DNA of 64,000 nt from an uncultured Gammaproteobacteria bacterium. Its GTDB lineage: Bacteria > Patescibacteriota > Microgenomatia > Levybacterales > UBA12049. The notes below the pieces were generated by a model. That model saw only the letters and a program-made list of their open reading frames with translations. It did no database searches and was not told where the DNA came from. Shown here in pieces: positions 21,323 to 46,386 of the stretch. The position numbers and the translations under genes are program-made. The DNA is taken from the NCBI GenBank assembly GCA_964503265.1, contig CAZCYO010000001.1:162064-226063 (forward strand), written 5' to 3'. Position 1 is the stretch's first letter, and every line of letters begins with the position of its first letter.

Positions 21323-21386
21323 TGTCATCCGCCAGCTGGCGGAGCTATTTTTAATACTGGATCTCCGATCAGGTCGGGGATGACAA
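21323..21386. mobile_element. short (~64 bp) MITE/RPE-like repeat copy with TGTCATCC ... GGATGACA termini
   Basis: Left end TGTCATCCgccagctggcgg, right end gatctccgatcaggtcgggGATGACAa; homologous to 32892-33016 ends. Confidence 0.5.
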
Positions 21387-21442
21387 TTGGTGAGGTTTTG
21401 TTTTTTTATATTTCTTCTCTACTTCCCCGGGTGACTTTTTTT

Positions 21443-22351
21443 ATGAAAAAACTTCTTACATTTGGCCCACTTTTTGTGATTATTGCTGCACTTTTGTGGA
21501 GTTTTGATGGATTGCTTCGAATTAGTCTTTACTCTCTTCCCCCTGCAGTTATTGTATTTTATGAACATCTTTTAGGGGTAATAGTTCTTCTTCCACTTGG
21601 GGTTATTTGGATGAAAGATCTCAAGAAAATGACACGGAGAGAATGGATTGCGATTACACTCGTTGCACTTTTTTCAGGAGCGCTTGGTACCATTCTTTAT
21701 ACTGCAGCACTTGGAAAAATAAATTATTCTTCGTATTCTATTGTGGTACTACTTCAGCAACAGCTACAACCTATTTGGGCCATTGGTATGGCAGCGATTC
21801 TTCTTCGAGAAAAAGTTACAAAACAATTTATGCTTTGGGCGGCAGTTGCACTTATCGCGGCATATTTTATTACATTTAAAGATCTTCAGGTAAATTTTTC
21901 TACAGGATCAGGGACAGTACTTGCTGGGGCATTCGCCTTACTTGCAGGATTTATGTGGGGGACATCGACAGCAATTAGTAAATTTGTGTTAAATAAAGTA
22001 TCATTCATGACTGCAACTGCACTTAGGTTTATGATTGCCCCACTTTTCGCGCTTTTCTTTGTCATCGGCCAGAACCAAACGGCACAGTTATTTGTTCTTA
22101 CTCCTCAACAAATCGGTACATTACTACTGATCACGTTTTCAACCGGTATGGTGGCACTTGGGTTTTATTATTATGGCCTTAAAAAAACTCCTGCTCGAAT
22201 CACGACATTGTGTGAATTAGTCTGGCCTGCGTCTGCTATTTTTATTGATTATGTACACTTCCATAAAACGTTGAGTGCAACACAAGTGTTAGGAGTAATC
22301 GTATTATTAGTTGCAATTTATCAAGTTACTAAAAAGACAGCATCTCATTAA
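21443..22351 (+). CDS. EamA/DMT-superfamily transporter (10 TM)
   Basis: Two EamA-like repeats of 5 TM each; ORF-track N-terminal extension (from 21164) covers repeat elements, ATG at 21443 (MKKLLTF) is the probable start. Confidence 0.75.
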   Translation: MKKLLTFGPLFVIIAALLWSFDGLLRISLYSLPPAVIVFYEHLLGVIVLLPLGVIWMKDLKKMTRREWIAITLVALFSGALGTILYTAALGKINYSSYSIVVLLQQQLQPIWAIGMAAILLREKVTKQFMLWAAVALIAAYFITFKDLQVNFSTGSGTVLAGAFALLAGFMWGTSTAISKFVLNKVSFMTATALRFMIAPLFALFFVIGQNQTAQLFVLTPQQIGTLLLITFSTGMVALGFYYYGLKKTPARITTLCELVWPASAIFIDYVHFHKTLSATQVLGVIVLLVAIYQVTKKTASH

Positions 22352-23100
22352 GCTGCACCACGAAGTGACGCAAAGAGGTGATGCATGACTCCAATTTTTT
22401 CTCTCATAATTGCAATATCTCTCGTGCCAGCTGGAAGCATGTCAGAATAAGGAAAAATTTGTGGTTCTCTTACTGCTTCATGTGCATGTTCTAATGTTCG
22501 TTCAATTCTTCCCGTCACATATGCTCGTAAGCTAGGAAGATTTGGAATTTGTCCATTTTTATAAATTCCTTCTTTACTATGTTGCTTGAGCCACTTTTTT
22601 ACAGTAACTGGATGTTCATCTTGATGAGGTTCTGGTTCCCAATCACCAAGGGCCAGAAATATATGCGGGGCACGAATATGTTGACTCCATCCAAAACCAT
22701 CTCGTTTATATGCGATGTGTCCTTTTCGTAATTTAACATCAATTCCCAGATAAACTCTCTGTTGTGGATCAGTAATCAGGAGATCTACTCCTTTTTGTCC
22801 TTCGCCGTGTTCAAGGGATTGTGGAGCTAACTGTGATGAAAATCCCGCCCCGGCTATAAGGGGCCTAAGTGCGAGATTTATTATTTGTTCAGCAAAGTAT
22901 GATTGTATTAATTCAGCTTGTTTTGGACGTGAATAGAAAAAATTTTCAAGTAATTCAGCACGGGATTTTCTAAATTGTAATGCACTTGTTCCTATATGAG
23001 GTCGATTTTTTCGTCCCACGTTAAATGTCATTTCGGGTGGGTATGATTCTTGATAATGCTGTGTAAAGCGACGTGAGGGATGTTCTTCCGTTACACTCAT
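22348..23100 (-). CDS. hypothetical protein (250 aa), GC-richer than flanks
   Basis: Long ORF, His-rich, no motif recognised. Confidence 0.45.
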   Translation of the reverse strand: MSVTEEHPSRRFTQHYQESYPPEMTFNVGRKNRPHIGTSALQFRKSRAELLENFFYSRPKQAELIQSYFAEQIINLALRPLIAGAGFSSQLAPQSLEHGEGQKGVDLLITDPQQRVYLGIDVKLRKGHIAYKRDGFGWSQHIRAPHIFLALGDWEPEPHQDEHPVTVKKWLKQHSKEGIYKNGQIPNLPSLRAYVTGRIERTLEHAHEAVREPQIFPYSDMLPAGTRDIAIMREKIGVMHHLFASLRGAA

Positions 23101-23157
23101 CTGTATTTATAGTAAAAGATTATTAATTTTTTTATAGATGAAGACATAATTTATTTG

Positions 23158-23991
23158 TTATTTCTCTGCAGTTACAATACCCATGTCATATTGACTACTC
23201 CTTGCAAGGAAACTATCAACTACATTTAGTGAATTATATAAAGGATCGTATATTTTTGTCTGTTTCTCGTTAAACCCTATTTTTTCACAAAGATTCCGTA
23301 CTTCTTGGGTGGCGCTGTGCATAATCCCCTGGTCGTTGTGGGCATATACTAACCTCCCTTCGGGTTTTAGAGCGAGATATGCATTTACGAGCAATAATAT
23401 ATTACCATTTACTCCTTTCATTGGAAGGTTATCTGGAAATGCAGAAAGAGCACTTTGAGTTCTAAAATTTTTGAGAAAAGAAAGTACTTGTCGAGCCGAT
23501 ATATTGTCAGGGTCTTCTTCTACTTGATTATATAAATCGGCAATTACTGCATCACATTCAGTAGGCGATGCATTTGCTGCGACAGAGTTAATAATCACTA
23601 CATCAGCAGAACTGGTTTCAATCCCATATCTTGCAAGAGGTTGATTTGTATTTCCTTGTTTTACTATAATATTTTCTGCTCCAGGAATGCCTATTTTCTT
23701 ATACGCATGGATTCTTTTTTGTGCATCTTCTACAAATTCTGGATCTAAATCAACTCCCGTAAATCTCCCGTGATTTTCCACTATTTTTAATGCTCGTCTA
23801 GAAAATGAGGAGAATTGACCAGAACCAAATTCTACTACATCTAAATTGGGGCGATTCACACCTGCTAATTTTTCAATTTTAGAGCTATGAAGTTTTAGTA
23901 ACCGCTCATGCCATGGTTGATAGTTGCTCGTGTTTTCGTTATGTGCTTTAAGAGCACTGACTCTGGGATCTTCGGAACTTACAGCTTCCAT
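23158..23991 (-). CDS. putative class I SAM-dependent methyltransferase
   Basis: Motif I-like VVEFGSGQF followed by acidic post-I (VDLD). Confidence 0.5.
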   Translation of the reverse strand: MEAVSSEDPRVSALKAHNENTSNYQPWHERLLKLHSSKIEKLAGVNRPNLDVVEFGSGQFSSFSRRALKIVENHGRFTGVDLDPEFVEDAQKRIHAYKKIGIPGAENIIVKQGNTNQPLARYGIETSSADVVIINSVAANASPTECDAVIADLYNQVEEDPDNISARQVLSFLKNFRTQSALSAFPDNLPMKGVNGNILLLVNAYLALKPEGRLVYAHNDQGIMHSATQEVRNLCEKIGFNEKQTKIYDPLYNSLNVVDSFLARSSQYDMGIVTAEK

Positions 23992-24032
23992 ACAATATAG
24001 TATAGCAATAAAGCATACGAAATGAGGGATAT

Positions 24033-25068
24033 TTGTTATACTTAACAGTTATGAAATACATTTTATCAGTGAGCGCAAAGGTGATGTTCTTATTTATTTT
24101 CATTATGTCGGTTATAACGCTTCTTTTTATTGGTGTTACTAGTTATTACCATCCTTCGAGCGTTATAGAGTTTATCGAGCAACTTCAACCAAGACCGTCA
24201 GTTAGTCCTTTTACTCTTACTGGAGTAGCTGTAATAGGAGATAGCCAATCAGATGAATACCGTGCTGATGATAGTCGTGGAACTACATATGCTTCAACTA
24301 CACTAAATTGGGTGGAGCTTCTTGCAAAGTATCGAAAAGTAAACTTCGGTGAATGGGGGGGGGTGGAGTGAGACACGTCGTACAGGGTTTTCATATAATT
24401 ATGCGAGATCTGGTGCGACAGCTAATAGTATGATTGTAAGCGGCCAACATGTTGGAGTTGCACAAGAGATAAAAGATGGAAAAGTAAATCTCGTTATTAT
24501 TTATATTGGAGCAAACGATTTTGCTCCATATATCACTGATGATGGATATCAGGCTATCTATGATGGCAGTATTACTCGTCCACAAATACTGAGAAAAGAG
24601 AATCTGATAATCGCGAATATCAAAACAGCAGTTGATACTATTCGTGATGCTGGGAATGCAAAAATAGTGCTAGTAAAAATTCCTGATTGGGGAAATCATA
24701 TCGGGGTGCAAGTAGGCTTTCCGTTTCCAGATCAGCGTGCACGTGTAACAACAGTGATACAAGAAACAAATATGCAACTTCAGTCACTTGCTGATGATTA
24801 TCAATTACCAATAATCGATCCAAATGATTTTTATAAAACTGTTAATGAACGTAATACTAAGGATGGAATAAAAATAGAGGATCAAGTATTTACTCGACTT
24901 ATTCCAGGTGATAACCCCCGTTCGCTTGTGCTTGAAGATGGTGTGCATCCTGGGACTGTGATGAACGGATTATTTGCGAACTATATAATTAAACATCTTA
25001 ACAGTACTATTGGAACTTCAATTAAAGAATTTTCAATTAATGAAATTTTTACTGCAGCTGGGCTTTAA
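24033..25068 (+). pseudogene. SGNH/GDSL-family hydrolase split into two ORFs by a frameshift at a G9 tract
   Basis: ORF1 carries block I GDSQSDEY; ORF2 (+1 frame) carries GANDF (block III) and DGVHPG (block V); the two frames overlap exactly at the G9 run 24355-24363. Confidence 0.65.
24355..24363. repeat. homopolymeric G9 tract at the SGNH hydrolase frameshift site
   Basis: gaatGGGGGGGGGtgg; only long G run noticed in the window. Confidence 0.8.
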
Positions 25069-25072
25069 AATG

Positions 25073-26182
25073 TTACTCTTTTACCAATTGATAGCCAAGT
25101 TTTTTATGATTGATAATTTCGTACCCTTTTTCTTTAATGTACGGGTGATGGCGAAGTCTGTAAACGAGAGAGTCAAGCGCCCAGTCTGTTGAACCAGTTG
25201 TTATATTTTTCCACACTGTTTCAATAATTTTTTCTTTAGAAATAATTTTCCCATTGTTCTTTTTTAAAAATTGAAAAAGGAGTTGTTCTTTCACAGATAA
25301 GTGAAATGACTTCTTTTTACAGATATATTCTTTTAGAAGTGGACTAAATAATTGATATGTTTCTTTATCATGTTTTACAACACCTATTTGTAAGAGAAAA
25401 CTATCCATATCAACTGTTTTTTCCTGAGCAATTCGTTCAATAATGCGTACTTGAGGACGAGTCAAAAAGCTCAGAATATCTTTTAAAAGAAGTTTAATAT
25501 AAGGATCATGGTTGAGGTTATTTGGAGTAGACGAACGAAGAATAAGCTGGAGAAGTTGAATATGTCCACCGCTTAGAGTCAGTGCATCTAGTATATTTTC
25601 TTTATGAATAACTTCAGGGGAATGAATTTTTAGTAATGCTTTTAAATCTTCGTGAGAATAGGGTGTAAAGTACACATATCGAGAAAAGATATGCATATTA
25701 CTCCCAACGACTGCCGCAGGATTATATTCTATAAATGGCTTATTTACACTAAAAATGAGGCTTACTTTCCCTTCGTTTTCATAACAAAGCGTTCTAAAAT
25801 TTCCTAAAAAAGATTCAGAAAATTCATGAGAGAGAAGATCAATTTTATTAACCATAATGACAACTCGATTATGTAGTTTTGTTATCGCATGCAGGGCAAC
25901 TTTACATTCTTCAAAAGAAACATTCTCTTTTTTAATGCCAGACATTTTATAAAAGAGTACATCAAGAAATACACGTTTTGAAAATTCAGCCAATTCATAT
26001 GTATCAAGAAGTATGGTATATGCGTCAATTTTATTTTCAATAAAACGTAAGAATGGAGAAATACCAACAGAGGGCATGCCGATAAGAGAAAAAGACTGCC
26101 CGCTCATAATAAACGAGCGAACTTGCTCTAACATATTTCCAGCAAATGTATCTGGCAAAAGTGACTCTTTTTGTTTATTCAT
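25073..26182 (-). CDS. transcriptional regulator with N-terminal NTPase-like domain and C-terminal OmpR/PhoB-type winged helix
   Basis: C-terminus LSVKEQLLFQFLKKNNGKIISKEKIIETVW...DSLVYRLRHH...LGYQLV matches trans_reg_C; N-terminal region has degenerate P-loop-like GMPSVGIS. Confidence 0.5.
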   Translation of the reverse strand: MNKQKESLLPDTFAGNMLEQVRSFIMSGQSFSLIGMPSVGISPFLRFIENKIDAYTILLDTYELAEFSKRVFLDVLFYKMSGIKKENVSFEECKVALHAITKLHNRVVIMVNKIDLLSHEFSESFLGNFRTLCYENEGKVSLIFSVNKPFIEYNPAAVVGSNMHIFSRYVYFTPYSHEDLKALLKIHSPEVIHKENILDALTLSGGHIQLLQLILRSSTPNNLNHDPYIKLLLKDILSFLTRPQVRIIERIAQEKTVDMDSFLLQIGVVKHDKETYQLFSPLLKEYICKKKSFHLSVKEQLLFQFLKKNNGKIISKEKIIETVWKNITTGSTDWALDSLVYRLRHHPYIKEKGYEIINHKKLGYQLVKE

Positions 26183-26353
26183 TAATTTATGCCTAATTTC
26201 ATCAGTATTTTATCATTTTAGTATCAAGAAATACAGAGGAATTGGTTATATCATGAAGTTACTTTCCTCAGACACGTTAAACAGTAGCGTTTAGCATTTT
26301 TTTAGGAGAGGATCTTGAACAACTGATCGAATAGTATCTGAGAGGAGACGGTC

Positions 26354-26854
26354 ATGCACGATGCATTCACTTACTGCCCGAACTGTGGTGGTACGTTGGT
26401 GTGGCCAGTTATCACTCCTGGTCAGTCACATGGACGGCCAAAGTGTATTAACTGTGGTTTCACCGACTATCATAATCCAATCCCAGCTGTTTGTGCGATC
26501 GTCCCTTACGAAGGAGGAGTCGTACTAATACAGCGGAAGAAGGCCCCTTTCCCTGGGTCGTGGTGCTTGCCTTGTGGGTTTGTCGATTATCGCGAGCAGC
26601 CAGATGATGCTATCGTTCGCGAGGTACGCGAAGAGACTGGACTCATTGTTAGTCCGAGTTCTGTCGTTCTGGCATGTGTGCCAGAACAGACGAACGAGCT
26701 CGTACTTCACTACCATACTGAGGTCGTCGGTGGCGAGCTTATCGCTGGTGACGATGCTTATAGTGCAGCTGTCTACATGTCTGGCAATTTGCCAGAATAC
26801 ATGCCTTTTAAGACCCATCGAGACATTATCCAGAAATGGTTTTCTCAGAACTGA
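26354..26854 (+). CDS. NUDIX hydrolase with N-terminal C4 zinc ribbon (NudC-like)
   Basis: CPNCGG...CINCGF zinc ribbon; Nudix box GFVDYREQPDDAIVREVREETGL; GC ~50% and canonical GAGGAG SD, unlike neighbours. Confidence 0.75.
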   Translation: MHDAFTYCPNCGGTLVWPVITPGQSHGRPKCINCGFTDYHNPIPAVCAIVPYEGGVVLIQRKKAPFPGSWCLPCGFVDYREQPDDAIVREVREETGLIVSPSSVVLACVPEQTNELVLHYHTEVVGGELIAGDDAYSAAVYMSGNLPEYMPFKTHRDIIQKWFSQN

Positions 26855-26912
26855 TTTCTTACTAATTTAGTAACGAGTTCATCTCTCTGACTTTTCGATT
26901 AGTTTATTTTTC

Positions 26913-26946
26913 GCCCCCTGGTATCCACCGGGGGGCTTTCTTTTAC
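26913..26946 (+). terminator. Rho-independent terminator (gccccctgg / ccggggggc stem with one G-U, loop tatcca, then TTTCTTTTAC)
   Basis: GC-rich hairpin plus T-tract 60 nt after the NUDIX stop. Confidence 0.65.
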
Positions 26947-27001
26947 ACAAGAAGAATATGGTGAGATAACCAGGTAAAAGTATCATGTTACAATACCTGT
27001 A

Positions 27002-28165
27002 ATGAAGTACGTGATAACAAGTTTCTTAGGGCTGTTAGGTGGGTTGATAACTGGATATGTAATAATTTTTTATACTCCTCTTTATTCGTTTGAGAAACAG
27101 CAGCATTATATTTCACCGCTTATAGATTCCAAACCTGAAGTAATCGGATTTTTGCCTTACTGGCTGATGAGTAAAGCGAAAAATGACTATTCACAACAAA
27201 TCACGACACTGACATATTTTGGATTAACGATAGGAGCTGATGGGAAAATTGTGAAGTTAGTAAATGAACAAGAAGAAGAACCAGGATGGTCAGCACTTGA
27301 TTCGGATATACTTAAAACTCATCTTGAAATGGCGAAGAAAAAGAATATTAAACGGTCACTGCTTGTATTTAGCGGGGTTTATTCTGATATTGATGCTCTG
27401 ATAAGTGATCCTCTAATACATGCGAATAATCTGGTCTCTGATGTCGCACCGATTATGAAAGAACATGGATTTACTGATTTAAATTTAGATATTGAAAGTA
27501 CTATTGTTGCATCTGATGAAGCGAGAGATCGGTTTGTTCAATTTGTTAAAGCAGTGAGAAGTGGACTTGATAAGAATAATATTTCGTCTCTCACCATTGA
27601 GATAAGTGGAAACGATATAATTAAACCTTATCTTATTGATGCGAAACGAGTTGCTCAGTATGTCGATCATATGGTTTTTATGGCATATGATTTCCACTAT
27701 ATCGGATCGAGTGTAACAGGAGCAGTTGCGCCATTATTTGGAGCAGGAATTACGAGTGAATTTGATACACAGGCAGCTATAGAAAAACTTCTTGCAGTAA
27801 TGCCGTCTGAAAAACTTATCCTTGGTATTCCGCTTTATGGATATGAATGGGAAACTCTCGCTTCGACTCCACATGCAGCCATTATTCCAGGTACTGGATT
27901 AACTGCGAGTAACAGTCGAGTGCAGTCGTTTTTATCGAATTGTTCTACTTGCAGCGCCACATTTGATGATGAATCGAAAGAAAGCTATGTCATCTATAAT
28001 GATAAAGAAACTTCAACATTTCACCAACTGTTTTACCCAGATGAAAAAGCCACAAGTGAGAAAGTAAACTATGCACAGACAATGCATTTAGGGGGACTTG
28101 CACTCTGGGCACTCGGGTATGAAGAACGTACTATAATGACGCCTCTTGAAACATATATTCGTTAG
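27002..28165 (+). CDS. glycoside hydrolase family 18-like protein (chitinase/peptidoglycan hydrolase fold), N-terminal TM anchor
   Basis: GH18 motifs FTDLNLDIES (DxxDxDxE-like), MAYDFHY, YGYEW. Confidence 0.7.
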   Translation: MKYVITSFLGLLGGLITGYVIIFYTPLYSFEKQQHYISPLIDSKPEVIGFLPYWLMSKAKNDYSQQITTLTYFGLTIGADGKIVKLVNEQEEEPGWSALDSDILKTHLEMAKKKNIKRSLLVFSGVYSDIDALISDPLIHANNLVSDVAPIMKEHGFTDLNLDIESTIVASDEARDRFVQFVKAVRSGLDKNNISSLTIEISGNDIIKPYLIDAKRVAQYVDHMVFMAYDFHYIGSSVTGAVAPLFGAGITSEFDTQAAIEKLLAVMPSEKLILGIPLYGYEWETLASTPHAAIIPGTGLTASNSRVQSFLSNCSTCSATFDDESKESYVIYNDKETSTFHQLFYPDEKATSEKVNYAQTMHLGGLALWALGYEERTIMTPLETYIR

Positions 28166-28166
28166 A

Positions 28167-32891: not shown

Positions 32892-33016
32892 TTGTCATCC
32901 TGGAATCCCGAAGATCATCGGGATGGATAGGATCTCATAAAGTGGGATTCTATCGCTTTGCTCCAGAATGACAGTAGGAATTATCTAATAGATTCCCGAT
33001 CAGGTCGGGAATGACA
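32892..33016. mobile_element. full-length (~125 bp) MITE/RPE-like element with TTGTCATCC ... GGAATGACAA termini and two tcccga-N-tcggga hairpins
   Basis: Left TTGTCATCCtggaATCCCGAagatcaTCGGGAT; internal segment homologous to the ileS-internal copy; right end agatTCCCGAtcaggTCGGGAATGACAA; lies in the tdh-kbl intergenic region. Confidence 0.55.
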
Positions 33017-37177: not shown

Positions 37178-37290
37178 TAAGCACCGTCGCGGTGTAACCG
37201 AGCAGTGATCCTTACTTCTGGACAATGGCGTCCATGAGGCGAGAACTCAGCTTCGGTTGCATAAACCAAAGCGGTGCTTTCTCGTTTTAG
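37178..37290 (+). terminator. module 0 structured terminator: AAGCACCG ... CGGTGCTT closing stem enclosing ~85 nt, then TCTCGTTTTAG
   Basis: Same GCACC/GGTGC closing helix with covarying flanks is found after modules A-D. Confidence 0.55.
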
Positions 37291-37359
37291 AATGATATAT
37301 TTCGAAATATTCCACAATAATCTTCATTACATTATAATCCCATAGCTTGTAAATTTTAC

Positions 37360-38958: not shown

Positions 38959-39071
38959 AAGCACCGTGGAGGTGTAACCGAGCAAAGTAGCTCATCAACG
39001 GACAACGGCGTCCATGAGATTGGCACTTAGCTACGGTTACCTAAACCTAAGCGGTGCTTTCTCATTTTTAG
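38959..39071 (+). terminator. module B structured terminator: AAGCACCG ... CGGTGCTT + TCTCATTTTTAG
   Basis: Near-identical in organisation to the module 0 terminator (shared internal ggtgtaaccgagca and ggacaa-ggcgtccatgag). Confidence 0.55.
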
Positions 39072-39189: not shown

Positions 39190-39285
39190 TTTTTTGCGGA
39201 AATTAACCCACTCACCGATGGCTTTTTGTTTGGTATCACTACCAGCTGAAAAGCTGTCGAATGAGTGTAATGTAGGAGAGGATCT

Positions 39286-39615
39286 ATGAAGTTCGTGGAG
39301 GTCTACACTCGGTTGGAAGGAGTTCCAGAAGGAACTATCATCAGCTTGACGTTTAAAAAAAAGGACATCAAGAAAATTCTCTATTTGGCTACGATGATCG
39401 GGAAGAAAATCCCTATCTTCACAGTCGAGAAAGGAACAAAGAAGAAAATAAAGCGGCTGTCTCGTAAGCAAGTCTGGTATAACAGACGAGATCGTACGAT
39501 CTCTGTCCGGACCACTTCGACCTTTGGAGAAGCTCTGAATATGGATTGGTTCGTCACAGTTATGTGTTATAGCCTCGAACATGTCGAGGTCTTATTCCAT
39601 CAGGAGCACCGCTGA
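39286..39615 (+). CDS. island module C: soluble Lys-rich protein (109 aa), LTF-motif family
   Basis: SD AGGAGAGG; N-terminus MKFVEVYTRLEGVPEGTIISLTF paralogous to 40816 ORF (MKLVDIYALSSAGIPTGAKLVLTF). Confidence 0.55.
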   Translation: MKFVEVYTRLEGVPEGTIISLTFKKKDIKKILYLATMIGKKIPIFTVEKGTKKKIKRLSRKQVWYNRRDRTISVRTTSTFGEALNMDWFVTVMCYSLEHVEVLFHQEHR

Positions 39616-39727
39616 AGCGGTAAAGGAGGTCACAAACCGTACAGCTGCTCGAGTTAGCGGCCACTGTTCACAATTCCTTCATCGATCTGATGAGGAACCT
39701 CGACTATATTCGCTGAGGAGGTGCACT

Positions 39728-39877
39728 ATGCCCCCGTTCAACGTAGTTATTGCTATCGTAATTGTAGCTCTCGTGGCTACATTCGCGATAAGCCGTGATC
39801 TATGGCCAGCTCTCGGAGTGTTCGTTGGAGGAATTCTCATTCTGTTGTGGTGCAATAGACACCGTCCACAGAATTAA
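39728..39877 (+). CDS. island module C: two-TM mini-membrane protein (49 aa)
   Basis: SD GAGGAGG before ATG at 39728; paralogous to 40630 ORF; ORF-track 39581 extension is unsupported. Confidence 0.5.
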   Translation: MPPFNVVIAIVIVALVATFAISRDLWPALGVFVGGILILLWCNRHRPQN

Positions 39878-39913
39878 ATTTCCTTACTTTTTCCGTAATG
39901 GTTATCGTGCCTT

Positions 39914-39978
39914 AAGCACCCCGATACGTTTCCAGTGATGGGAATTTCCGAAAGGATAGGGGTGCTTTCTCATTTTTA
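39914..39978 (+). terminator. module C structured terminator: AAGCACCCC ... GGGGTGCTT + TCTCATTTTTAT
   Basis: Compensatory change (CG to CC/GG) relative to modules 0 and B. Confidence 0.55.
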
Positions 39979-40020
39979 TATCCTCAATTCATTGAAACCT
40001 ATAGTTTGATTATTTCTCAT

Positions 40021-40033
40021 TTTTTTGCTATAC
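40021..40033 (+). promoter_or_regulatory. module D promoter: T-tract + extended -10 TGCTATACT
   Basis: tttttTGcTATACT. Confidence 0.5.
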
Positions 40034-40175
40034 TACACATGCATTTGAAGGCTATCTAGACTCATTTTTGCTGTCTCGATAATACTTCTTCTGCTTATTT
40101 ATTCGACCACTGTATCTTACTTTTCGACTTAGATCATTTGATCTGTGGCTTAAAGAGCGATAAGTAGTGGACTTC

Positions 40176-40186
40176 GCACGTTTACA
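40176..40186 (+). promoter_or_regulatory. module D leader box (TC)GCACGTTTACA
   Basis: Exact 13-mer; followed by tcccgat-atac-atcggga hairpin and CGATGGCTTT(T)TG motif shared with module C leader. Confidence 0.5.
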
Positions 40187-40303
40187 AATCATCCCGATAT
40201 ACATCGGGAATTGCGGAAATAGATAACTAATCGATGGCTTTGTGCCTCGACAGACAGTCGGGATAGAAAGTCGTCGGTTAGTTTTTCGTCGAAAGGATCA
40301 TAA

Positions 40304-40606
40304 ATGTCTCACGAAGCTGTTCTGAACATAGTCACAGACCTTCTGCCACTGACGCTGATCGAGATAACCTTCACACTAGAAGGATTTCAGGGTCTCTGCC
40401 TTCTACATCAAATGTGTCAACGCAAGGGTTTACCTCTGCTATTTGACGCGCGGACTCATCGTCGAATTGGACGTCTAGTGAGCATCGGAGAGTGGGGAGA
40501 CGATGGAAATCGTCATATCTTCGGATACATATCCGAGGCTTTTTCTCCCACTCACTTCACTGAAACACTTCAGCCATATCTCGAAAATGTTCGAGTAGTG
40601 GCCTAA
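40304..40606 (+). CDS. island module D: soluble protein (100 aa), LTF-motif family
   Basis: SD AAAGGA; LTLIEITFTLEG motif. Confidence 0.5.
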   Translation: MSHEAVLNIVTDLLPLTLIEITFTLEGFQGLCLLHQMCQRKGLPLLFDARTHRRIGRLVSIGEWGDDGNRHIFGYISEAFSPTHFTETLQPYLENVRVVA

Positions 40607-40629
40607 CCTACATAATGGAGGTGTCCAAC

Positions 40630-40791
40630 ATGCAAACATTCTGCGATCTGTTTGCCATCTTTCTGGTGGCGATCGGGTATACAGCCGCATTAAGCGGCGG
40701 ACTACTCGGTGGGGGAATTCTCATCACAGTTGCGCTCCTTCTCATCTTCGCGCCCACAGTCTATATGGACTGGGCAAAATTGCGTCGCTGA
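40630..40791 (+). CDS. island module D: two-TM mini-membrane protein (53 aa; below ORF-track size cutoff)
   Basis: SD GGAGG 8 nt before ATG; MQTFCDLFAIFLVAIGYTAALSGGLLGGGILITVALLLIF resembles module C mini-protein; coordinates hand-counted (+/-1). Confidence 0.45.
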   Translation: MQTFCDLFAIFLVAIGYTAALSGGLLGGGILITVALLLIFAPTVYMDWAKLRR

Positions 40792-40815
40792 TGCGACAAA
40801 TGTAATGGAGGCACC

Positions 40816-41013
40816 ATGAAGCTCGTCGACATCTATGCTCTGTCCAGTGCTGGTATCCCGACGGGAGCAAAACTCGTACTTACGTTCGAGCTCAATGCGC
40901 ACATGGGTCCTTTCCACCTGAAAGGACTTGTTCAGAATCACAGTTTGCCGACCGCGTCGGCCCCTTCTTGGAGAGCCTGGAGATTAAGCGCCCGTAAGGG
41001 CAATGAGCTATAA
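40816..41013 (+). CDS. island module D: small soluble protein (65 aa), paralog of module C 109-aa protein N-terminus
   Basis: SD GGAGG; MKLVDIYALSSAGIPTGAKLVLTFEL. Confidence 0.5.
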   Translation: MKLVDIYALSSAGIPTGAKLVLTFELNAHMGPFHLKGLVQNHSLPTASAPSWRAWRLSARKGNEL

Positions 41014-41035
41014 CGCAATCGTACACGTGCGAATC

Positions 41036-41112
41036 TCGCACCCTTGGGTCTTTTTAGACCCGCCTCTTTAGAGAGGTTTCTGTAAAAAGAAAGGGTGCGA
41101 TTTTTGCATTTT
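41036..41112 (+). terminator. module D / island-end structured terminator: TCGCACCCTT ... AAGGGTGCGA + TTTTTGCATTTT
   Basis: 10-bp closing helix around two internal hairpins (gggtc/gaccc, cctct/agagg) followed by U-tract, 40 nt before ileS. Confidence 0.55.
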
Positions 41113-41155
41113 ATGCCTAGTTGAATAGGCTCAACCTTTGCGCTACAATTAGCCC

Positions 41156-44032
41156 ATGGCTCACGAGATAACATTTGATGCAGTAACCCCGAAAGTAAAT
41201 TTTCCTGAAATGGAAGAAGAGACACTTTCTTACTGGAAAGAAAACCGTATTTTTGAAAAATCACTTGAAAAAGATTCCCCTAAAGGTGACTGGACATTTT
41301 TAGATGGTCCACCTTTTGTCACAGGACTTCCACACTATGGTCATATTTTAGGCAGTATCGCGAAAGATTTATTCCCTCGTTTTAAAACGATGCAGGGATA
41401 TCACGTCAGACGTGTATGGGGATGGGATGGGCACGGACTACCGATTGAAAATAAAGTCGAGAATAAGCTTGAAATAAAACGTAAAAAAGATATCGAAGAA
41501 ATCGTCGGAGTAGCGAAATTTATCGAAGAATGTAAAACATATGTGAATGAAGTATCAGGAGAGTGGGAATGGTACATCGATCATATCGCGCGTTGGGTAG
41601 ATTTTAAAAATGCATACAAAACCTGGGATACACCATACATGGAATCTGTCATGTGGGTGTTTAAACAGATGTATGAAAAAGGATATGTCTATAAAGGACT
41701 TCGCGTTTCTCTCTACTGTCCTCACTGTTCAACACCTATTTCTAACTTCGAAGTCGCGATGGATGCAGACAATTATAAAGAAATTATCGACGCAGCTACC
41801 ACATACAAGTATGAATTAGTAGGTGAAAATAATACCTATATTCTTGCTTGGTCGACAACTCCTTGGAATAAAATCGTTACTCCAGCCCTGGCCGTAAATC
41901 CAAAACTCACCTATGTAAAAGTGATACAGGGTGAAGAACTGTATATTTTAGCTGAATCCACTATCAAGACGATTCAAGGGGAATATGAAGTAATTGAAAA
42001 GATGCAGGGAGCTGACTTAGTAGGAAAGAAATTCGTGCCTCATTATGATTATTATAAAATTGCAGAGGGTGAGAAAGCCTTTGAAATTATCCCTGGAGAT
42101 TTCGTGACAGCAGAGGAGGGAACTGGCGTTGTCACAATCGCTGCCTACGGTGAAGAGGATTTGAAAGTAATGAACGAATATAATGTTCATATCGAACTTC
42201 ATGTCGATGAGGAAGGTACAATTAAATCCGACGTGCCGATGTTTGGTGGGATGTATTATTTAAAGGCAAACAAAGCAGTTAATGCAGATTTAGCAGAACG
42301 AGGGCTTGTCTATCGTGATGAAGATTTGCCACACAATGTTCCACTCTGCTGGAGATGTCACACCAGGCTCTACTATGCTCCACAAAATGCGTGGTATGTA
42401 AATGTACAGATACTTAAAGATCAACTGAAAAAAACAAATAAAGATATTAACTGGGTTCCATCTCACTTTAAAACTGGACGCTTTCAGAAAAGTATCGAAG
42501 CAGCACCAGACTGGTGTATATCACGAAATAGATACTGGGGTTCACCGGTTCCAGTGTGGGAATGTATGTGTGGAGAGCGATTCGTTCCAGGATCGATTGC
42601 TGAACTAGAAACGGCAAGTGGACGAAAAATAAAAGACTTACATAAGCCAGAAATAGACGAAGTAACAGTTCCGTGTAAAAAATGTGATCAAACCATGCAT
42701 AGAGTACCAGAAGTACTCGATAGTTGGATTGAGGCTGGGTCTGCAGCTTTTGCAGAACGTCACTTTCCATTTGAAGGAATCACTGATCCTAGCGAATTCT
42801 TCCCATCAGATTTTATCGTCGAATATACAGGACAGATTCGCGCATGGTTCTATGTATTACATGTTATTTCAAATGCAATTTACGGTGAAAAAGCATTTAA
42901 AAATGTCGCTGTTACTGGAGTAATACTTGGAACTGATGGACGAAAGATGAGTAAGAATCTGGGTAATTATCCAGATCCGAAGGAACTTATGAAAGAGTAT
43001 GGAGGAGACGCACTCAGACTCTATCTCATGAGTAGTCCTGTGATTCGTGGTGAGGATGCGATTATATCTGCTGAAGCATATCGACAGGAAGTACGAGGAC
43101 TCATGCTTATTTTATGGAATGTCTATAACTTCTTTATTAGTTATGCTCTTATTGATGGCTGGACTCCTGATCGTCATCCTGGAAAAGCAACGACTTTGAT
43201 AGGATCTCACAAGAATGGAGATTCTATCGCTGCGCTCCAGAATGACAATGTTTTAGATCAATGGATCATATCTCTTCAGAATACGTTGATTAAAGAAGTC
43301 ACTGAGTGTTTAGAAAAATATGATACGGTAACTTCAATCGCGAAATTGCATGAATTCGTTAATGACCTTTCGACATGGTATTTACGACGAAGTCGAGATC
43401 GTGTGGGACCAAGTGCGATGGATACACATGACAGAGAAGCGTTTTATGTAACCATGTATGAAGTACTGACCACACTATGTCGTGTGATGGCGCCGTTCAC
43501 ACCATTTTTAGCAGATGAAATGTATATGAATTTAACGAAAGAAGAGTCTGTGCATTTAGCATCATGGCCTGAGTATAAAGAAGAACTAATTAACAAACAG
43601 CTTAACGAAGAAATGAATGTGGTTCGTAAAATTGTCGAGATAGGACATGCGAAACGAAAAGAAACAGGTTTTAAAGTTAGACAGCCACTAAATAATTGTC
43701 AAATATCAAATGTCCAATATCCAATATCCAAAGAGATGATGCAGTTGCTTAAGGATGAACTAAACGTAAAAGAAATAGAATTTACTTTAGGAGAAGAAGA
43801 AATAGATGTTATTTTCGACATTGTGTTAACACCTGAGCTTAAAGCTGAGGGGGAGGCGCGGGATATCGTTAGAAAGATTCAAGAAGAAAGAAAGATGATC
43901 GGAACGACGCTTGATGCGAAAGTGAATGTGACGATTCCTGAGTATCCTGAAAGTTTTGTGGAGTATATTAAACAGAATGCACTAGTTGAAATAATTTCAA
44001 AAGGGGAGTTTAAGGTAGAGAAAGTTGGGTAG
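41156..44032 (+). CDS. ileS: isoleucyl-tRNA synthetase, eukaryote-like type 2
   Basis: HIGH variant PHYGH, GWDGHGLPIE, KMSKN motif GRKMSKNLGNYPDP; N-terminus typical of type 2 IleRS; TACAAT 7 nt before ATG, no SD. Confidence 0.85.
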   Translation: MAHEITFDAVTPKVNFPEMEEETLSYWKENRIFEKSLEKDSPKGDWTFLDGPPFVTGLPHYGHILGSIAKDLFPRFKTMQGYHVRRVWGWDGHGLPIENKVENKLEIKRKKDIEEIVGVAKFIEECKTYVNEVSGEWEWYIDHIARWVDFKNAYKTWDTPYMESVMWVFKQMYEKGYVYKGLRVSLYCPHCSTPISNFEVAMDADNYKEIIDAATTYKYELVGENNTYILAWSTTPWNKIVTPALAVNPKLTYVKVIQGEELYILAESTIKTIQGEYEVIEKMQGADLVGKKFVPHYDYYKIAEGEKAFEIIPGDFVTAEEGTGVVTIAAYGEEDLKVMNEYNVHIELHVDEEGTIKSDVPMFGGMYYLKANKAVNADLAERGLVYRDEDLPHNVPLCWRCHTRLYYAPQNAWYVNVQILKDQLKKTNKDINWVPSHFKTGRFQKSIEAAPDWCISRNRYWGSPVPVWECMCGERFVPGSIAELETASGRKIKDLHKPEIDEVTVPCKKCDQTMHRVPEVLDSWIEAGSAAFAERHFPFEGITDPSEFFPSDFIVEYTGQIRAWFYVLHVISNAIYGEKAFKNVAVTGVILGTDGRKMSKNLGNYPDPKELMKEYGGDALRLYLMSSPVIRGEDAIISAEAYRQEVRGLMLILWNVYNFFISYALIDGWTPDRHPGKATTLIGSHKNGDSIAALQNDNVLDQWIISLQNTLIKEVTECLEKYDTVTSIAKLHEFVNDLSTWYLRRSRDRVGPSAMDTHDREAFYVTMYEVLTTLCRVMAPFTPFLADEMYMNLTKEESVHLASWPEYKEELINKQLNEEMNVVRKIVEIGHAKRKETGFKVRQPLNNCQISNVQYPISKEMMQLLKDELNVKEIEFTLGEEEIDVIFDIVLTPELKAEGEARDIVRKIQEERKMIGTTLDAKVNVTIPEYPESFVEYIKQNALVEIISKGEFKVEKVG
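43172..43248 (+). mobile_element. ~77 bp copy of the TGTCATCC/GAATGACA repeat family inserted in-frame within ileS (encodes ~RHPGKATTLIGSHKNGDSIAALQNDN)
   Basis: cGTCATCCtggaa...ataggatctcacaagaatggagattctatcgctgcgctccaGAATGACAa is ~85% identical over ~50 nt to the internal part of the 32892-33016 element. Confidence 0.6.
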
Positions 44033-44040
44033 TTAGCGAC

Positions 44041-44097
44041 AAGCTTCATGACTCAAATTTCAATAAAACCCTCTGCATCTTGAAGCTTTTATTTGTG
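44041..44097 (+). terminator. ileS terminator: aagcttca/tgaagctt 8-bp closing stem around a 32-nt loop, then TTTTATTTGTG
   Basis: Inverted repeat plus T-tract immediately after the ileS stop. Confidence 0.45.
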
Positions 44098-44106
44098 AGA
44101 TTCTTA

Positions 44107-44132
44107 CGTCACTTCGTTCCTCAGAATGACAC
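44107..44132. repeat. degenerate short copy of the repeat family (CGTCAC ... cagaATGACAc)
   Basis: gtcacttcgttcctcagaatgacactag resembles ctccagaatgacagtagg of the full element. Confidence 0.3.
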
Positions 44133-44184
44133 TAGTAATCATGGCCTGACATTGGAGATTCAGAGTGGTATTATGGTTTGACTT

Positions 44185-45264
44185 ATGAAGAAAACGCTTA
44201 CATCGCTTGATTGGTGGTTACTTGGGCCGGTGGTGCTTCTGATTACACTCGGACTGGTTACTCTATTTTCACTTAATCCTATTTTTTTCAGGGGGCAGCT
44301 ATTTTATGTGGTTATTTCAGTTGCGGTGTTTTTATTTTGTGCGAATTTGGATTATACGTTTTTAAAATCTTTAATGGTGCCTATTTATATTCTGTCATTG
44401 GCGCTTCTGATCGTGGTGTTTATTATCGGGTTTGAAAGTCATGGGGCTGTTCGATGGGTAGATATTTTCGGGATAAGTTTTCAGTTTTCAGAACTGTGTA
44501 AGCCGTTACTTTCACTGAGTATGGTAGCATTTTTAAGTCTCCATGAAGATCGTACTATTCGATCGTTTTTAACAGTCGGTTTACTACTTTTCCCTATCAT
44601 GCTTCTTATTCTTCTCCAACCAGATCTAGGAAATGCGCTTATATATGGAGGCGTAGGGGTATTCGTGCTTCTTTTATATGGTTATCCGTATCGATGGTTT
44701 ATCATTGCTGCTACGCCTATTGTTCTGTCCATACCAGTTTTATGGGAGCGACTTCATGACTATCAGCGTAAGCGTCTTCTCACTTTTTTAAATCCTTCAA
44801 GTGATCCGACAGGGGCCTCATATAATGTTATTCAAGCAATTATTGCTGTTGGATCTGGTGGGTTTTTAGGTAGGGGACTCTCAAGTGGGACACAATCAGG
44901 ACTGAGGTTTCTTCCAGAACGCCAGACAGACTTTATTTTTGCTTCTCTCTCTGAAGCACTTGGATTTGTCGGATCATTTATCGTTATTGTAGCTTTTATC
45001 TTTCTTATCGTTCGACTGTATATCATTTTTAAACAAACAGATGAATTATTTGGTAAACTTTTTGTCGCGTGTGCATTTTCCTTTCTGATGATTCACTTTT
45101 TTGTCAACATCGGTATGAATGTGGGCATCGTCCCAGTAGTCGGTGTTACACTCCCATTTCTGTCATTTGGAGGAAGTTCGATGTTGACTAACTTTATATT
45201 CCTCGGCATTGTCATGTCGATAGAAAGAAAAAACAAACGAGAAAGTGTTCTCGAGATACGATAG
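44185..45264 (+). CDS. rodA: SEDS-family peptidoglycan polymerase RodA/FtsW paralog
   Basis: Motifs PERQTDFIFA and GVTLPFLSFGGSSML; second SEDS gene in window (first is in the dcw cluster). Confidence 0.75.
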   Translation: MKKTLTSLDWWLLGPVVLLITLGLVTLFSLNPIFFRGQLFYVVISVAVFLFCANLDYTFLKSLMVPIYILSLALLIVVFIIGFESHGAVRWVDIFGISFQFSELCKPLLSLSMVAFLSLHEDRTIRSFLTVGLLLFPIMLLILLQPDLGNALIYGGVGVFVLLLYGYPYRWFIIAATPIVLSIPVLWERLHDYQRKRLLTFLNPSSDPTGASYNVIQAIIAVGSGGFLGRGLSSGTQSGLRFLPERQTDFIFASLSEALGFVGSFIVIVAFIFLIVRLYIIFKQTDELFGKLFVACAFSFLMIHFFVNIGMNVGIVPVVGVTLPFLSFGGSSMLTNFIFLGIVMSIERKNKRESVLEIR

Positions 45265-45296
45265 TGTTATTGTGGCAAATAACGTAAGATAAAATT

Positions 45297-45875
45297 ATGT
45301 TGAATGAAAACTTTATTATCTTAGGAGCTGTTATTGGTGCTGTGGGGTCTTTAGCGTATTTAGTTGATACGGTAAAAGGTAAAGTAAAACCAAACCGTGT
45401 ATCGTTTTTACTGTGGTCGATAGCACCGATTATTGCTTTTGTGGCTCAGTTAAAACAAGGTGTTGGACTTGAATCGCTTATGACATTTAGTACGGGTTTT
45501 TTACCACTTACCATTTTTATCGCTTCTTTTGTTAATAAATCGGCTGAGTGGAAGTTAACTACATTTGATCTAATATGTGGATTACTTTCAGTAGTTGGGT
45601 TAATTTTATGGCTGATAACTAGGATTGGAAATGTTGCGATCCTCTTTAGTATTATTGCAGATGGGTTAGCCGCATTACCGACACTAGTTAAAGCATATAA
45701 ATATCCAGAATCTGAAATTGCATGGCCTTGGCTTGCTACTTCAATAGGCGTTATCCTTACCGTATTAACGATAAAAGAGCTGACATTTGCTAATAGCGGT
45801 TTTATTATTTATATTTTCATCGTTAACACTCTTATTTTCAGTTTTGCCCAGTTTAAAATAGGTAAAAAGGTCTAA
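45297..45875 (+). CDS. hypothetical polytopic membrane protein (192 aa)
   Basis: 5-6 hydrophobic segments; no motif. Confidence 0.45.
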   Translation: MLNENFIILGAVIGAVGSLAYLVDTVKGKVKPNRVSFLLWSIAPIIAFVAQLKQGVGLESLMTFSTGFLPLTIFIASFVNKSAEWKLTTFDLICGLLSVVGLILWLITRIGNVAILFSIIADGLAALPTLVKAYKYPESEIAWPWLATSIGVILTVLTIKELTFANSGFIIYIFIVNTLIFSFAQFKIGKKV

Positions 45876-45888
45876 TCTGCTAAACCTG

Positions 45889-45917
45889 TTTAAAAATTCA
45901 TTTGAATCTGGTATAAT
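45889..45917 (+). promoter_or_regulatory. rplU promoter: -35-like TTTAAA, extended -10 TGGTATAAT ending 10 nt before ATG (leaderless-type)
   Basis: ctgGTATAATctctttcagtATG; no SD. Confidence 0.5.
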
Positions 45918-45927
45918 CTCTTTCAGT

Positions 45928-46344
45928 ATGAAATTTGCAGTAATTAAAACAGGGGGAAAACAATATCGCGTGTCTGAGGGCGATGTTATAACCGTTGAAA
46001 GACTTGAAAATCCACAGAGTGAGCTTGTGACTTTTTCTGAAGTGCTTCTTATGGCTGATGGAGACGTAGTAACGATTGGTAAACCACTCGTTAGCGGCAT
46101 GACAGTGAGCGGAGTAGTCATAGAACATCCAAAAGGAGAGAAAATTCGTGTTTCACAATATAAAGCAAAAGCACGATTCCGACGGGTTAATGGACATCGA
46201 CAAGCTCTCACTACTGTTCGAATTGATATGATCGGAAATACAAAAGTATCAGGAGTATCAAAAGCTGAAGTAGTTAAAGAAGATACCGTAAGTACAATGA
46301 CACCACCTGTTAAGAAACCAGCTCGAGCTAAAAAAGCTGAGTAA
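45928..46344 (+). CDS. rplU: 50S ribosomal protein bL21 with Lys/Ala-rich C-terminal extension
   Basis: MKFAVIKTGGKQYRVSEGDVI...; 138 aa vs ~103 typical. Confidence 0.9.
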   Translation: MKFAVIKTGGKQYRVSEGDVITVERLENPQSELVTFSEVLLMADGDVVTIGKPLVSGMTVSGVVIEHPKGEKIRVSQYKAKARFRRVNGHRQALTTVRIDMIGNTKVSGVSKAEVVKEDTVSTMTPPVKKPARAKKAE

Positions 46345-46347
46345 GGG

Positions 46348-46386
46348 ACGATCTTATAGATCCTCGATCAGGTCGAGGATGACAGG
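46348..46386. repeat. right-hand sub-element of the repeat family (hairpin cctcga-tcagg-tcgagg + GATGACA), directly after rplU stop
   Basis: atagatCCTCGAtcaggTCGAGGATGACAgg vs atagatTCCCGAtcaggTCGGGAATGACAa at 32985-33016: stem changes are compensatory. Confidence 0.5.

Follow-up and report, generated by a model that had tools for sequence, protein, structure and literature searches.

GTC-tagged hairpin repeats in a Levybacteria-like genome and their probable place among CGTC-tagged REPs and Ssn-related motifs

Short palindromic repeats recur through a 64,000-nucleotide stretch of contig CAZCYO010000001.1, referred to here as the window, and one of them lies inside the essential gene ileS. 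What kind of element are they, and which enzyme might recognise them? The reading that we favour, with a probability of roughly 80%, is that they are hairpins of the class described as CGTC-tagged repetitive extragenic palindromes (REPs) and as Ssn-related motifs (SRM), a class that takes in the Neisseria Transformation Sequence (NTS), dRS3 and the Rickettsia palindromic elements (RPE) RPE-4 and RPE-6, carried here by a Levybacteria-like genome of the candidate phyla radiation (CPR/Patescibacteria). An original prediction made from the window alone had called them non-autonomous REP/RPE-type selfish palindromes, and they do fit the published definition of CGTC-tagged REPs, which includes RPE-4, RPE-6 and dRS3 (PMC3733652).

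The repeats share more than a loose outline. A core of 17 specified bases, CGATCAGGTCGNNNATGACA, occurs exactly on the plus strand at 21366-21385, 32997-33016 and 46365-46384, that is three matches where shuffles give 0.08, and a second block, GATTCTATCGCTNNGCTCCAGAATGACA, is common to 32946-32973 and 43220-43247 (2 matches versus 0.00 expected). The three variable bases to the right of the core pair with three bases on its left (TCCCGA/TCGGGA, CCTCGA/TCGAGG), and those of the third copy, CTCCGA/TCGGGG, are complementary but for one mismatch. Because the variable triplets flanking the core are complementary, the hairpin covariation is real, and the compensatory substitutions first claimed for the internal hairpin hold. 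A covariance model (R1), trained on 69 distinct modules that all come from genomes outside the window, matches the three intact modules on the minus strand with E values of 3e-9 (32988-33015), 2e-8 (46356-46383) and 2e-6 (21357-21384), and matches decayed arms weakly, with E values of 0.14-0.41, at 32943-32972, 44096-44130, 43217-43246 and 43173-43209. For the intact modules the resemblance is thus well above significance, contrary to one of the outcomes foreseen as fatal to the idea. Strict criteria and this model replaced a permissive scan (GTCAT plus a hairpin of at least 6 bp, mismatches allowed), which was noisy, with 36 matches versus 23.5 in shuffles.

In all, the window contains three intact and four decayed modules, arranged as solos and inverted doublets. 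The modules and the host gene ileS are, by coordinates and strand:

21323-21346, plus: doublet 1, forward module; tGTC, TCCGCC-AGCT-GGCGGA palindrome, gC; outer A.G pair imperfect
21357-21385, minus: doublet 1, intact reverse module; TGTC, ATCCCCGA cctga TCGGAGAT, CCAG; one C.A mismatch; upstream of the EamA gene
32893-32934, plus: subfamily-A doublet, forward arm; TGTC ATCCT..AGGAT C
32943-32973, minus: subfamily-A doublet, decayed reverse arm; tGTC ATTCT-(13)-AGAAT CCC; R1 E 0.14
32988-33016, minus: intact solo reverse module; TGTC, ATTCCCGA cctga TCGGGAAT, CTAT; in the tdh-kbl spacer, 28 nt upstream of the kbl start
41156-44032, plus: host gene ileS, 958 aa, in which a doublet adds residues 673-697
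43172-43209, plus: ileS doublet, forward arm; cGTC ATCCT-(20)-AGGAT C; translated RHPGKATTLIGS; R1 E 0.41
43217-43247, minus: ileS doublet, reverse arm; tGTC ATTCT-(13)-AGAAT C; the plus strand encodes ..GDSIAALQND; R1 E 0.32
44096-44131, minus: decayed solo reverse module; tGTC ATTCT-(18)-AGAAT CTCA; in the ileS-ftsW spacer; R1 E 0.23
46356-46384, minus: intact solo reverse module; TGTC, ATCCTCGA cctga TCGAGGAT, CTAT; in the rplU-rpmA spacer, just upstream of a conserved promoter-like site

The repeating unit is one tagged hairpin, GTC plus a stem-loop plus C. More fully, a module reads (T/C)GTC, an 8-bp stem starting with AT, a 5-nt loop, the return stem and C. The GTC tag is found in 3/3 intact and 4/4 decayed modules (TGTC in the three intact ones, CGTC in the ileS copy), and C directly follows the palindrome in all seven; the 3' tail of the intact modules is CCAG in one and CTAT in two. 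The 8-bp stems are perfect at 32992-33012 and 46360-46380 and contain one mismatch at 21361-21381. Folded as single-stranded DNA (ssDNA), the modules at 32988-33016, 46356-46384 and 21357-21385 reach -7.6, -7.4 and -3.2 kcal/mol, and the two perfect hairpins have z-scores of -3.8 and -3.05, in agreement with the hairpin structure proposed at the outset. Decayed modules retain the outer 5 bp only (ATCCT/AGGAT, ATTCT/AGAAT), their inner stems being lost.

Three doublets, at 21323-21386, 32893-32973 and 43172-43247, have their tags facing outward, and these inverted pairs are the inverted ends noticed earlier. As ssDNA the doublets fold at z -3.7 to -5.0, either into a pair of small hairpins or into a single long hairpin; the whole of doublet 1 (21323-21386) reaches -13.6 kcal/mol (z -3.7) and the 32892-32973 doublet -18.3 kcal/mol (z -4.65). 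The forward module of doublet 1, which can also be written tGTC-TCCGCCagctGGCGGA-gC, has a 6-bp stem (21328-21343) and is followed, after an 11-nt spacer, by the reverse module. The doublets at 32893-32973 and 43172-43247 are two copies of one subfamily and have in common GTCATCCTGGA...ATAGGATCTCAyAA...GATTCTATCGCT..GCTCCAGAATGAC; within the 32893-32934 forward arm a nested hairpin, ATCCCGA-agatca-TCGGGAT, occupies 32905-32924.

Most copies in the original prediction (21323-21386, 32892-33016, 43172-43248 and 46348-46386) are borne out by the exact patterns and, for the three intact modules, by strong R1 matches. The copy given as 44107-44132 is weak taken alone, with a fold no better than shuffles (z -0.6), and is better delimited as 44096-44131. 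The minimal palindromes at 5217-5229 and 21253-21267 exist but do not stand out, as GTCAT-N0-9-ATGAC is found twice versus 0.78 expected and 19 of 100 shuffles reach two. The 125-bp stretch regarded as the full form is instead a composite of one decayed doublet and one intact solo module; it is not the ancestral unit, because the larger elements are combinations of single modules. The intergenic placement of copies is confirmed by the Pfam labels of the flanking genes, namely histidine kinase and EamA, epimerase-type tdh and Aminotran_1_2 kbl, FtsW, and L21 and L27. The statement that the window lacks a transposase also holds, since Pfam revealed no transposase, integrase, Y1, DDE or GIY-YIG domain in its ~59 open reading frames (ORFs).

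To which known family does such a unit belong? A full-text literature search with GTCATTCCCGC led to Chenal et al. 2025 (PMC11893778), while a search with GGGAATGAC and 'palindromic' returned nothing relevant. The NTS is CGTCATTCCCGCGMAVGCGGGAATCYRG and contains the dRS3 repeat ATTCCC-N8-GGGAAT (PMC11893778), and it has been generalised to SRM across bacteria (PMC11893778, Chenal et al., Nat Commun 2025). Its partner SsnA, a GIY-YIG protein of 94 aa and one domain (cd10448), binds only the ssDNA hairpin, in a single orientation, and cuts a few nucleotides upstream of it; cleavage depends most on the three bases preceding the palindrome and binding on the C that follows it (PMC11893778). Binding and cutting have been shown for the Neisseria and Wolbachia Ssn homologs only, the Ssn/NTS pair modulates natural transformation in Neisseria, and the NTS-ssnA-NTS arrangement resembles an insertion sequence (IS) (PMC11893778). 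CGTC-tagged REPs, described earlier, carry a CGTC or TGTC tag, stems of 8-9 bp starting with AT, loops of 4-5 nt and CCA tails; they are mostly inverted dimers, some are intragenic, no transposase is associated with them, and they have been equated with Neisseria dRS3 and Rickettsia conorii RPE-4/RPE-6 (PMC3733652).

The window modules share with NTS/SRM the GTC directly 5' of an AT...AT palindrome and the C directly after it, to the point that the window form TGTCATTCCCGAcctgaTCGGGAATCyag nearly equals CGTCATTCCCGCGMAVGCGGGAATCYRG; they also share multiple copies, inverted pairs and, in other genomes, the presence of the hairpin on both sides of ssn-like genes. They differ at the top of the hairpin, with an A-T inner pair and five loop nucleotides (CCTGA) in place of four, in their CPR host, a group without mention in PMC11893778, and in the absence of an ssn gene from the 64-kb window, transformation control having been shown for Neisseria. 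The published SRM pattern, HGTCWYN(0-2)YYVSBRHN(0-5)WNVSBRGN(0-2)RNCYNB, has one exact match in the window (21357-21385) versus 0.02 expected. With CGTC-tagged REPs the agreement covers the CGTC/TGTC tag, the 8-bp stem starting with AT, the 4-5-nt loop and short tail, the frequent dimers, the intragenic copies and the lack of an associated transposase; the window tails, by contrast, are CCAG or CTAT, and the likeness to RPE-4 and RPE-6 is by description only. At the level of sequence, the membership of the window modules in this family is established.

The same hairpin is widespread outside the window, so that the similarity is not confined to it. A scan with the 17 specified bases over 185,579 species genomes yielded at least 120 stretches, from which no copy count can be derived. 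About 30-35 of the 120 listed stretches are chance matches in G+C-rich coding DNA, and ~85-90 carry the extended context (c)tGGAT(t/c)CC-CGATCAGGTCG-GG(a/g)ATGACA, in which the variable triplets are again complementary (GGGA/TCCC, GGGG/CCCC, GGGC/GCCC, GGCG/CGCC, GGTG/CACC, GGCC/GGCC). A partner module, GTCATTCCCGCGAAAGCGGGAATCCAG, is often found inverted 0-25 nt upstream. The listed matches come from several Patescibacteria classes, Dehalococcoidia, Nitrospirales, Syntrophia/Smithella, Bacteroidales, Cloacimonadota, Kiritimatiellia, Verrucomicrobiota, Armatimonadota, Bdellovibrionales, Legionellaceae and Alphaproteobacteria. The 29-nt hairpin, loop included, is near-unchanged in many phyla and in predicted viral contigs: ten stretches of the latter bear it, one contig five times, and the predicted viral loci (IMG/VR, L181-L191) hold 1-8 modules each, with 8 in 9 kb in L190. 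Phages or prophages may be vehicles between phyla.

The tag itself is strongly favoured. Among perfect AT-initiated hairpins of at least 7 bp in the 1.17 Mb of loci retrieved, 163 follow GTC and 1-10 follow each of eight permuted tags. The palindrome is followed by C in 159/163, GTC is preceded by T in 133 and by C in 24, and the stem and loop measure 8/5 in 107 and 8/4 in 42; tails of CCAG and CCAT dominate elsewhere in these loci. As a side observation, five loci (L066, L081, L023, L102, L192) hold short tandem arrays of the hairpin 3' half plus spacer beside a full module, GTCGGGAATGACActtataca being present twice in L066 and GCGGGAATCCAGtcgggggtaacctcca three times in L192; such arrays might be footprints of copy-making.

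Which enzyme could be the partner? Ssn-like GIY-YIG genes directly adjoin the hairpin in L046, L113, L017, L101 and L018. The first three are laid out as forward module(s), ssn-like gene and reverse module(s), with tags outward; in L101 the upstream forward modules alone are visible because the locus ends inside the gene, and in L018 the upstream GTCAT alone is seen beside the gene. On the predicted viral contig L191, a hairpin-ssn-hairpin unit of ~380 bp has identical modules on both sides. The L113 protein has at least 3,776 homologs at E<=1e-5, including proteins 62-85% identical in organisms labelled Omnitrophota, Ignavibacteriaceae, Dadabacteria and Uhrbacteria. In the CPR Uhrbacteria assembly GCA_001791115, which is also the source of hairpin match L005, an Ssn-like GIY-YIG gene (L192 4001-4330) is inserted between dnaK and dnaJ of an hrcA-grpE-dnaK-dnaJ operon, preceded by a module cluster and overlapped at its 3' end by a reverse module; the dnaK-ssn-dnaJ arrangement recurs in two other samples (L193, L194). 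The IS200/IS605 TnpA suggested earlier as cognate enzyme thus gives way to a likely Ssn-family GIY-YIG nuclease, whose genes are flanked by the same hairpin elsewhere, and a cognate Ssn enzyme for the window copies in this organism is plausible but unproven. Weak GIY-YIG matches in L135, L140 and L132 were set aside; L135, the sole one inspected, is G+C-rich and has no adjacent module. Many Ssn-like proteins (P0121-P0240) are 104-127 aa long rather than ~95, some ORFs end in ..GSPLSRG by reading into the downstream hairpin module, and most of these genes come from very short contigs, perhaps because assemblies break at repeats.

By analogy with the characterised homologs, the system might work as follows. 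The unit on one strand, (T/C)GTC, an 8-bp AT-starting stem, a 4-5-nt loop, a return stem ending in AT and C(C/T)A, would fold as ssDNA, and a small Ssn-family GIY-YIG nuclease would recognise the hairpin on that strand and cut a few nucleotides 5' of GTC. A CPR Ssn homolog would accordingly be expected to bind and cut ssDNA carrying TTGTCATTCCCGACCTGATCGGGAATCTAT and not its reverse complement equally. Since the hairpins flank ssn-like genes as inverted ends elsewhere, in IS-like units of ~380 bp in which two inverted modules with outward tags bracket an ssn gene, the window doublets (21323-21386, 32893-32973, 43172-43247) look like gene-less miniature derivatives of such a unit, and solo modules would be single ends or doublet remnants. 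Copies would be gained at particular sites and then inherited vertically for long, with intergenic stems kept by compensatory change and ileS stems left to decay; what would let the ileS copy survive is its position in an open frame inside a variable loop on the protein surface. We infer that an Ssn homolog acts or once acted on the window copies, that the doublets derive from a gene-bearing unit, and how new copies are made. The suggestion that the repeats are recurrent protein or RNA binding sites would then be right in a sense, the hairpins being protein-recognition sites in ssDNA.

Comparison with close relatives bears on the age of the copies. These relatives are L121 and, from one metagenome-assembled genome (MAG), L122 and L028; all are partial genomes with flanking proteins 83-90% identical. 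At the ileS site a decayed doublet with common ends GTCATCCTG...CAGAATGACAAT occupies the same codon position in the window and L122, and L121 is empty. At the rplU-rpmA site a reverse module is present in the window and L122, whose copies differ by two compensatory pair changes (TTCCCGA/TCGGGAA versus TCCTCGA/TCGAGGA), and is missing from L177-L180, more distant Levybacteria-like genomes (IleS 67-69% identical) with zero modules in the 45 kb examined. At the tdh-kbl site the reverse module is found in all three close relatives' genomes compared; it is identical in L028 and reads ATTCTCGA/TCGAGAAT in L121, where the tag is mutated and decayed and a C-G pair has changed to T-A (TTCCCGA/TCGGGAA versus TTCTCGA/TCGAGAA). 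The left side of this site is variable, with nothing in L121, one clean forward module, GTCATCCTGAActtgaTTCAGGATC, in L028 and a decayed doublet in the window. Module density is 2 per 10 kb in L122, 2 per 4 kb in L028 and 0 per 45 kb in the distant relatives. A metagenome scan with FtsW found distant relatives only (<=58% identity) and no added filled/empty comparisons.

Modules are thus gained at specific sites, tend to accumulate beside existing ones and persist long, with stems maintained in intergenic DNA and decayed within ileS. The window copies are old and vertically inherited, not recently mobile. The check proposed for target-site duplications found none evident at any copy or filled/empty pair, with resolution at intergenic sites limited by divergence. 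In passing, the gene call for kbl in L121 begins at 4111, at an ATG that arose through decay of the hairpin tag (..GAGAATGAAG..); ATGGCAAAAAAACAA, 15 nt further downstream, is the start that L121 shares with the window and L028.

The copy said to lie inside ileS is indeed there, at 43172-43248, in frame within the 958-aa IleS ORF. It adds 25 residues, RHPGKATTLIGSHKNGDSIAALQND, between the conserved NVYNFF..YA..D motif and the LDxWI helix, a site that corresponds in Thermus thermophilus IleRS (1ILE) to a short, length-variable loop before the first helix of the anticodon-binding domain. Other IleS homologs have inserts there and at two further positions, with perfect in-frame doublets at the DNA level, such as that of L177 (aGTC, ATCCTGAA cttgg TTCAGGAT, C ...ATGCCGAA acaag TTCGGCAT, GACa). 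CPR IleS proteins therefore bear in-frame doublets at three or more positions. Among 90 matches examined from other genomes, 23 are inside long open frames, and the forward end has the same frame (xGT CAT yCT) in four of four insert starts examined. One ATGAC frame contains TGA, which suggests that only stop-free in-frame insertions survive.

Ogata and colleagues reportedly described, in 2000, Rickettsia palindromic elements inserted in frame in protein-coding genes. The parallel with the CPR IleS doublets extends to a palindromic repeat in an essential gene, a short peptide in a putatively tolerant surface region, and inserts at different positions in different homologs; the host phylum differs, as does the form of the insert, here 66-90 bp doublets of two tagged hairpins.

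Several points weigh against assigning the window copies to an Ssn system. Neither a target-site duplication nor a fresh insertion is seen, and the copies are old. The tail is CTAT rather than CCA in two of the three intact copies, and two of them miss the SRM pattern at one return-stem position because of their 5-nt loop. The 100% pairing of the training alignment (A3) is circular and uninformative, its members having been chosen for perfect stems. No ssn or other GIY-YIG gene was found within the 64 kb, either by Pfam or by a hidden Markov model of 120 Ssn-like proteins run against six-frame ORFs of at least 35 aa (none at E<=10). Finally, a host function at the RNA level would also lead one to expect hairpins that persist for long with compensatory changes at orthologous sites.

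This last point leads to the alternative that survives best, namely that the hairpins are host-useful RNA elements, sense-transcribed downstream of tdh, ileS and rplU and maintained by selection, not as selfish DNA, in a role as mRNA stabilisers, processing sites or intercistronic punctuation. All solo modules of the window lie between co-directional plus-strand genes, hence within mRNA, orthologous copies retain their stems through compensatory changes, and many REPs are located downstream of coding regions and plausibly transcribed (PMC3733652). However, the 90 matches from many genomes show no preferred orientation with respect to adjacent ORFs (31:25 upstream, 24:21 downstream), more distant Levybacteria lack the rplU-rpmA copy, and the occurrence of the same 29 nt with its loop across phyla and viral contigs is not what a regulatory RNA restricted to one lineage would show. 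As RNA, the hairpin is not bound by SsnA (PMC11893778), and Rfam gave no match at the gathering threshold over the whole window. The reverse modules are not intrinsic terminators because no T-run follows them; no terminator-like site is found at the three intact modules (ATGACA follows), and the forward module at 21328-21343 alone scores as one. On balance we consider such an RNA-level role unlikely, although it may hold alongside the Ssn reading. Two further ideas were dropped: a 'safe' orientation relative to transcription or replication, as the window solos are co-oriented but the 90 matches elsewhere are unbiased, and the asymmetry of G.T versus A.C mismatches as a strand test for DNA or RNA, for which the cases are too few (2 versus 4, by eye).

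GTAG-REP/REPIN systems are built on a tagged hairpin that is recognised as ssDNA and is non-autonomous, with a single-copy RAYT gene flanked by the repeats. The window copies share this tagged-hairpin design, as imperfect palindromes, and their inverted doublets are likewise able to form one long hairpin, with no transposase nearby, which makes a classical REP/REPIN mobilised by RAYT, an IS200/IS605-type Y1 tyrosine transposase, worth weighing. Yet the tag is GTC(AT) and not GTAG, no Y1 transposase gene was found flanked by CGTC repeats (Di Nocera et al. 2013, PMC3733652), what these hairpins bracket in the retrieved loci is a gene for a GIY-YIG nuclease rather than an HUH/Y1 transposase, and the ORFs of the window contain no Y1_Tnp domain. 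We regard this origin as very improbable. Ordinary miniature inverted-repeat transposable elements (MITEs) derived from a DDE-transposase IS with terminal inverted repeats TTGTCATCC/GGATGACAA fare slightly worse and are scarcely credible: the doublets are short (64-82 bp), contain no gene, end in inverted repeats and differ in presence between relatives, but no target-site duplication is visible, a DDE parent is missing, no DDE transposase with these ends is found in any retrieved locus, lone modules are as frequent as doublets, and the conserved unit is a hairpin with a covarying stem, not a linear terminal repeat. Chance or low-complexity resemblance has next to no probability, since it can account for the pair of minimal palindromes and, considered by itself, for the copy at 44096-44131, but is ruled out for the three intact modules and the shared subfamily-A doublet by the exact counts and the independent R1 E values.

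Selfish or domesticated ssDNA hairpin sites of an Ssn system are therefore the best-supported account of the window repeats. A bolder version holds that the doublets are miniatures of a ~380-bp Ssn-nuclease element without a known transposase class, which moves between distant phyla, CPR and phages included, and repeatedly lands in frame in essential genes such as ileS. We offer this only tentatively, as it seems somewhat more likely wrong than right; if true, an ssn element reshapes proteins in otherwise extremely streamlined genomes.

The window reveals no new system, as the class was already known from the CGTC REPs of 2013 and its probable enzyme, Ssn, from 2025. What it adds is modest: a CPR host, in-frame IleS inserts that parallel the Rickettsia RPE phenomenon, and the cross-phylum and viral spread of one hairpin variant around a small nuclease gene. 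CPR genomes, of ~1 megabase here, are usually thought to be repeat-poor, and here such a genome carries these hairpins and has kept them for long; the limited literature collection searched contained no paper that connects REP/RPE-type repeats to CPR. CPR bacteria are also thought to depend on DNA uptake, and the transformation-modulating nuclease/hairpin pair of Neisseria is thus of interest in them. The shared hairpin and Ssn-like proteins of 65-70% identity across distant phyla and viral contigs, together with the inverted ends that the hairpins form around the gene, strengthen the suggestion of a present or past mobile unit (PMC11893778).

The assignment of the host rests on the window's IleS, whose closest database relatives (P0001, P0002) are 83% identical and are followed by a large set at 65-69%. 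Relatives that bear names are 'Candidatus Levybacteria' or 'Patescibacteria group', and by this comparison the window comes from a Levybacteria-like CPR member. The MAG that contains L122 and L028 (GCA_964443315, contigs CAYUCP010000029 and CAYUCP010000063) goes under the title 'uncultured Gammaproteobacteria bacterium', although its contigs show synteny with the window (ileS-ftsW-rplU-rpmA-parB; tdh-kbl) and P0002 is the IleS that it encodes. Because the window's other relatives are Levybacteria or Patescibacteria, the label looks wrong, or the bin mixed.

Some modules touch on possible expression signals. At 46379-46407 and also at 21108-21137 on the minus strand, the module end ATGACA resembles a -35 hexamer and, 17 nt ahead of TACTAT, scores as part of a promoter-like site; now and then a module might contribute half a promoter. 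The forward module of doublet 1 at 21328-21343 (plus strand), TCCGCCAGCTGGCGGA then GCTATTTTTA, is the one that scores as intrinsic-terminator-like; it has a promoter-like site on one side (21115-21143) and the start codon of EamA on the other (21443). An inverted repeat, TGTGAAAA...TTTTCACA, encloses a promoter-like site upstream of rpmA, at 46407-46435 (TTGACT, 17 nt, TAGAAT). When the rplU-rpmA spacers of the window, L122, L177, L178, L179 and L180 were compared, this repeat was kept in all six Levybacteria-like relatives, the remaining spacer not being conserved; it may be an operator or leader for L27.

The window, with ~37% G+C and no tRNA found by a tRNA scan, holds a second, unrelated repeat on the plus strand. 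Two copies of 113 nt (37179-37291 and 38959-39071) are ~85% alike, and a 66-nt short form lies at 39914-39979; each is just after a small ORF without a Pfam match, in a stretch of 46% G+C at 36-40.7 kb. The repeat has no Rfam match at E<=1, in a search that covered 36-41.2 kb, and is absent from all relatives' loci compared. It is closed by a long-range stem, AAGCACCG...CGGTGCTT, for which the short form has AAGCACCCC...GGGGTGCTT, a compensatory change. The stem is followed by TCTC(A/G)TTTT, and the consensus is predicted to fold at -37 kcal/mol, so that the second repeat could be a structured 3' element or a small RNA.

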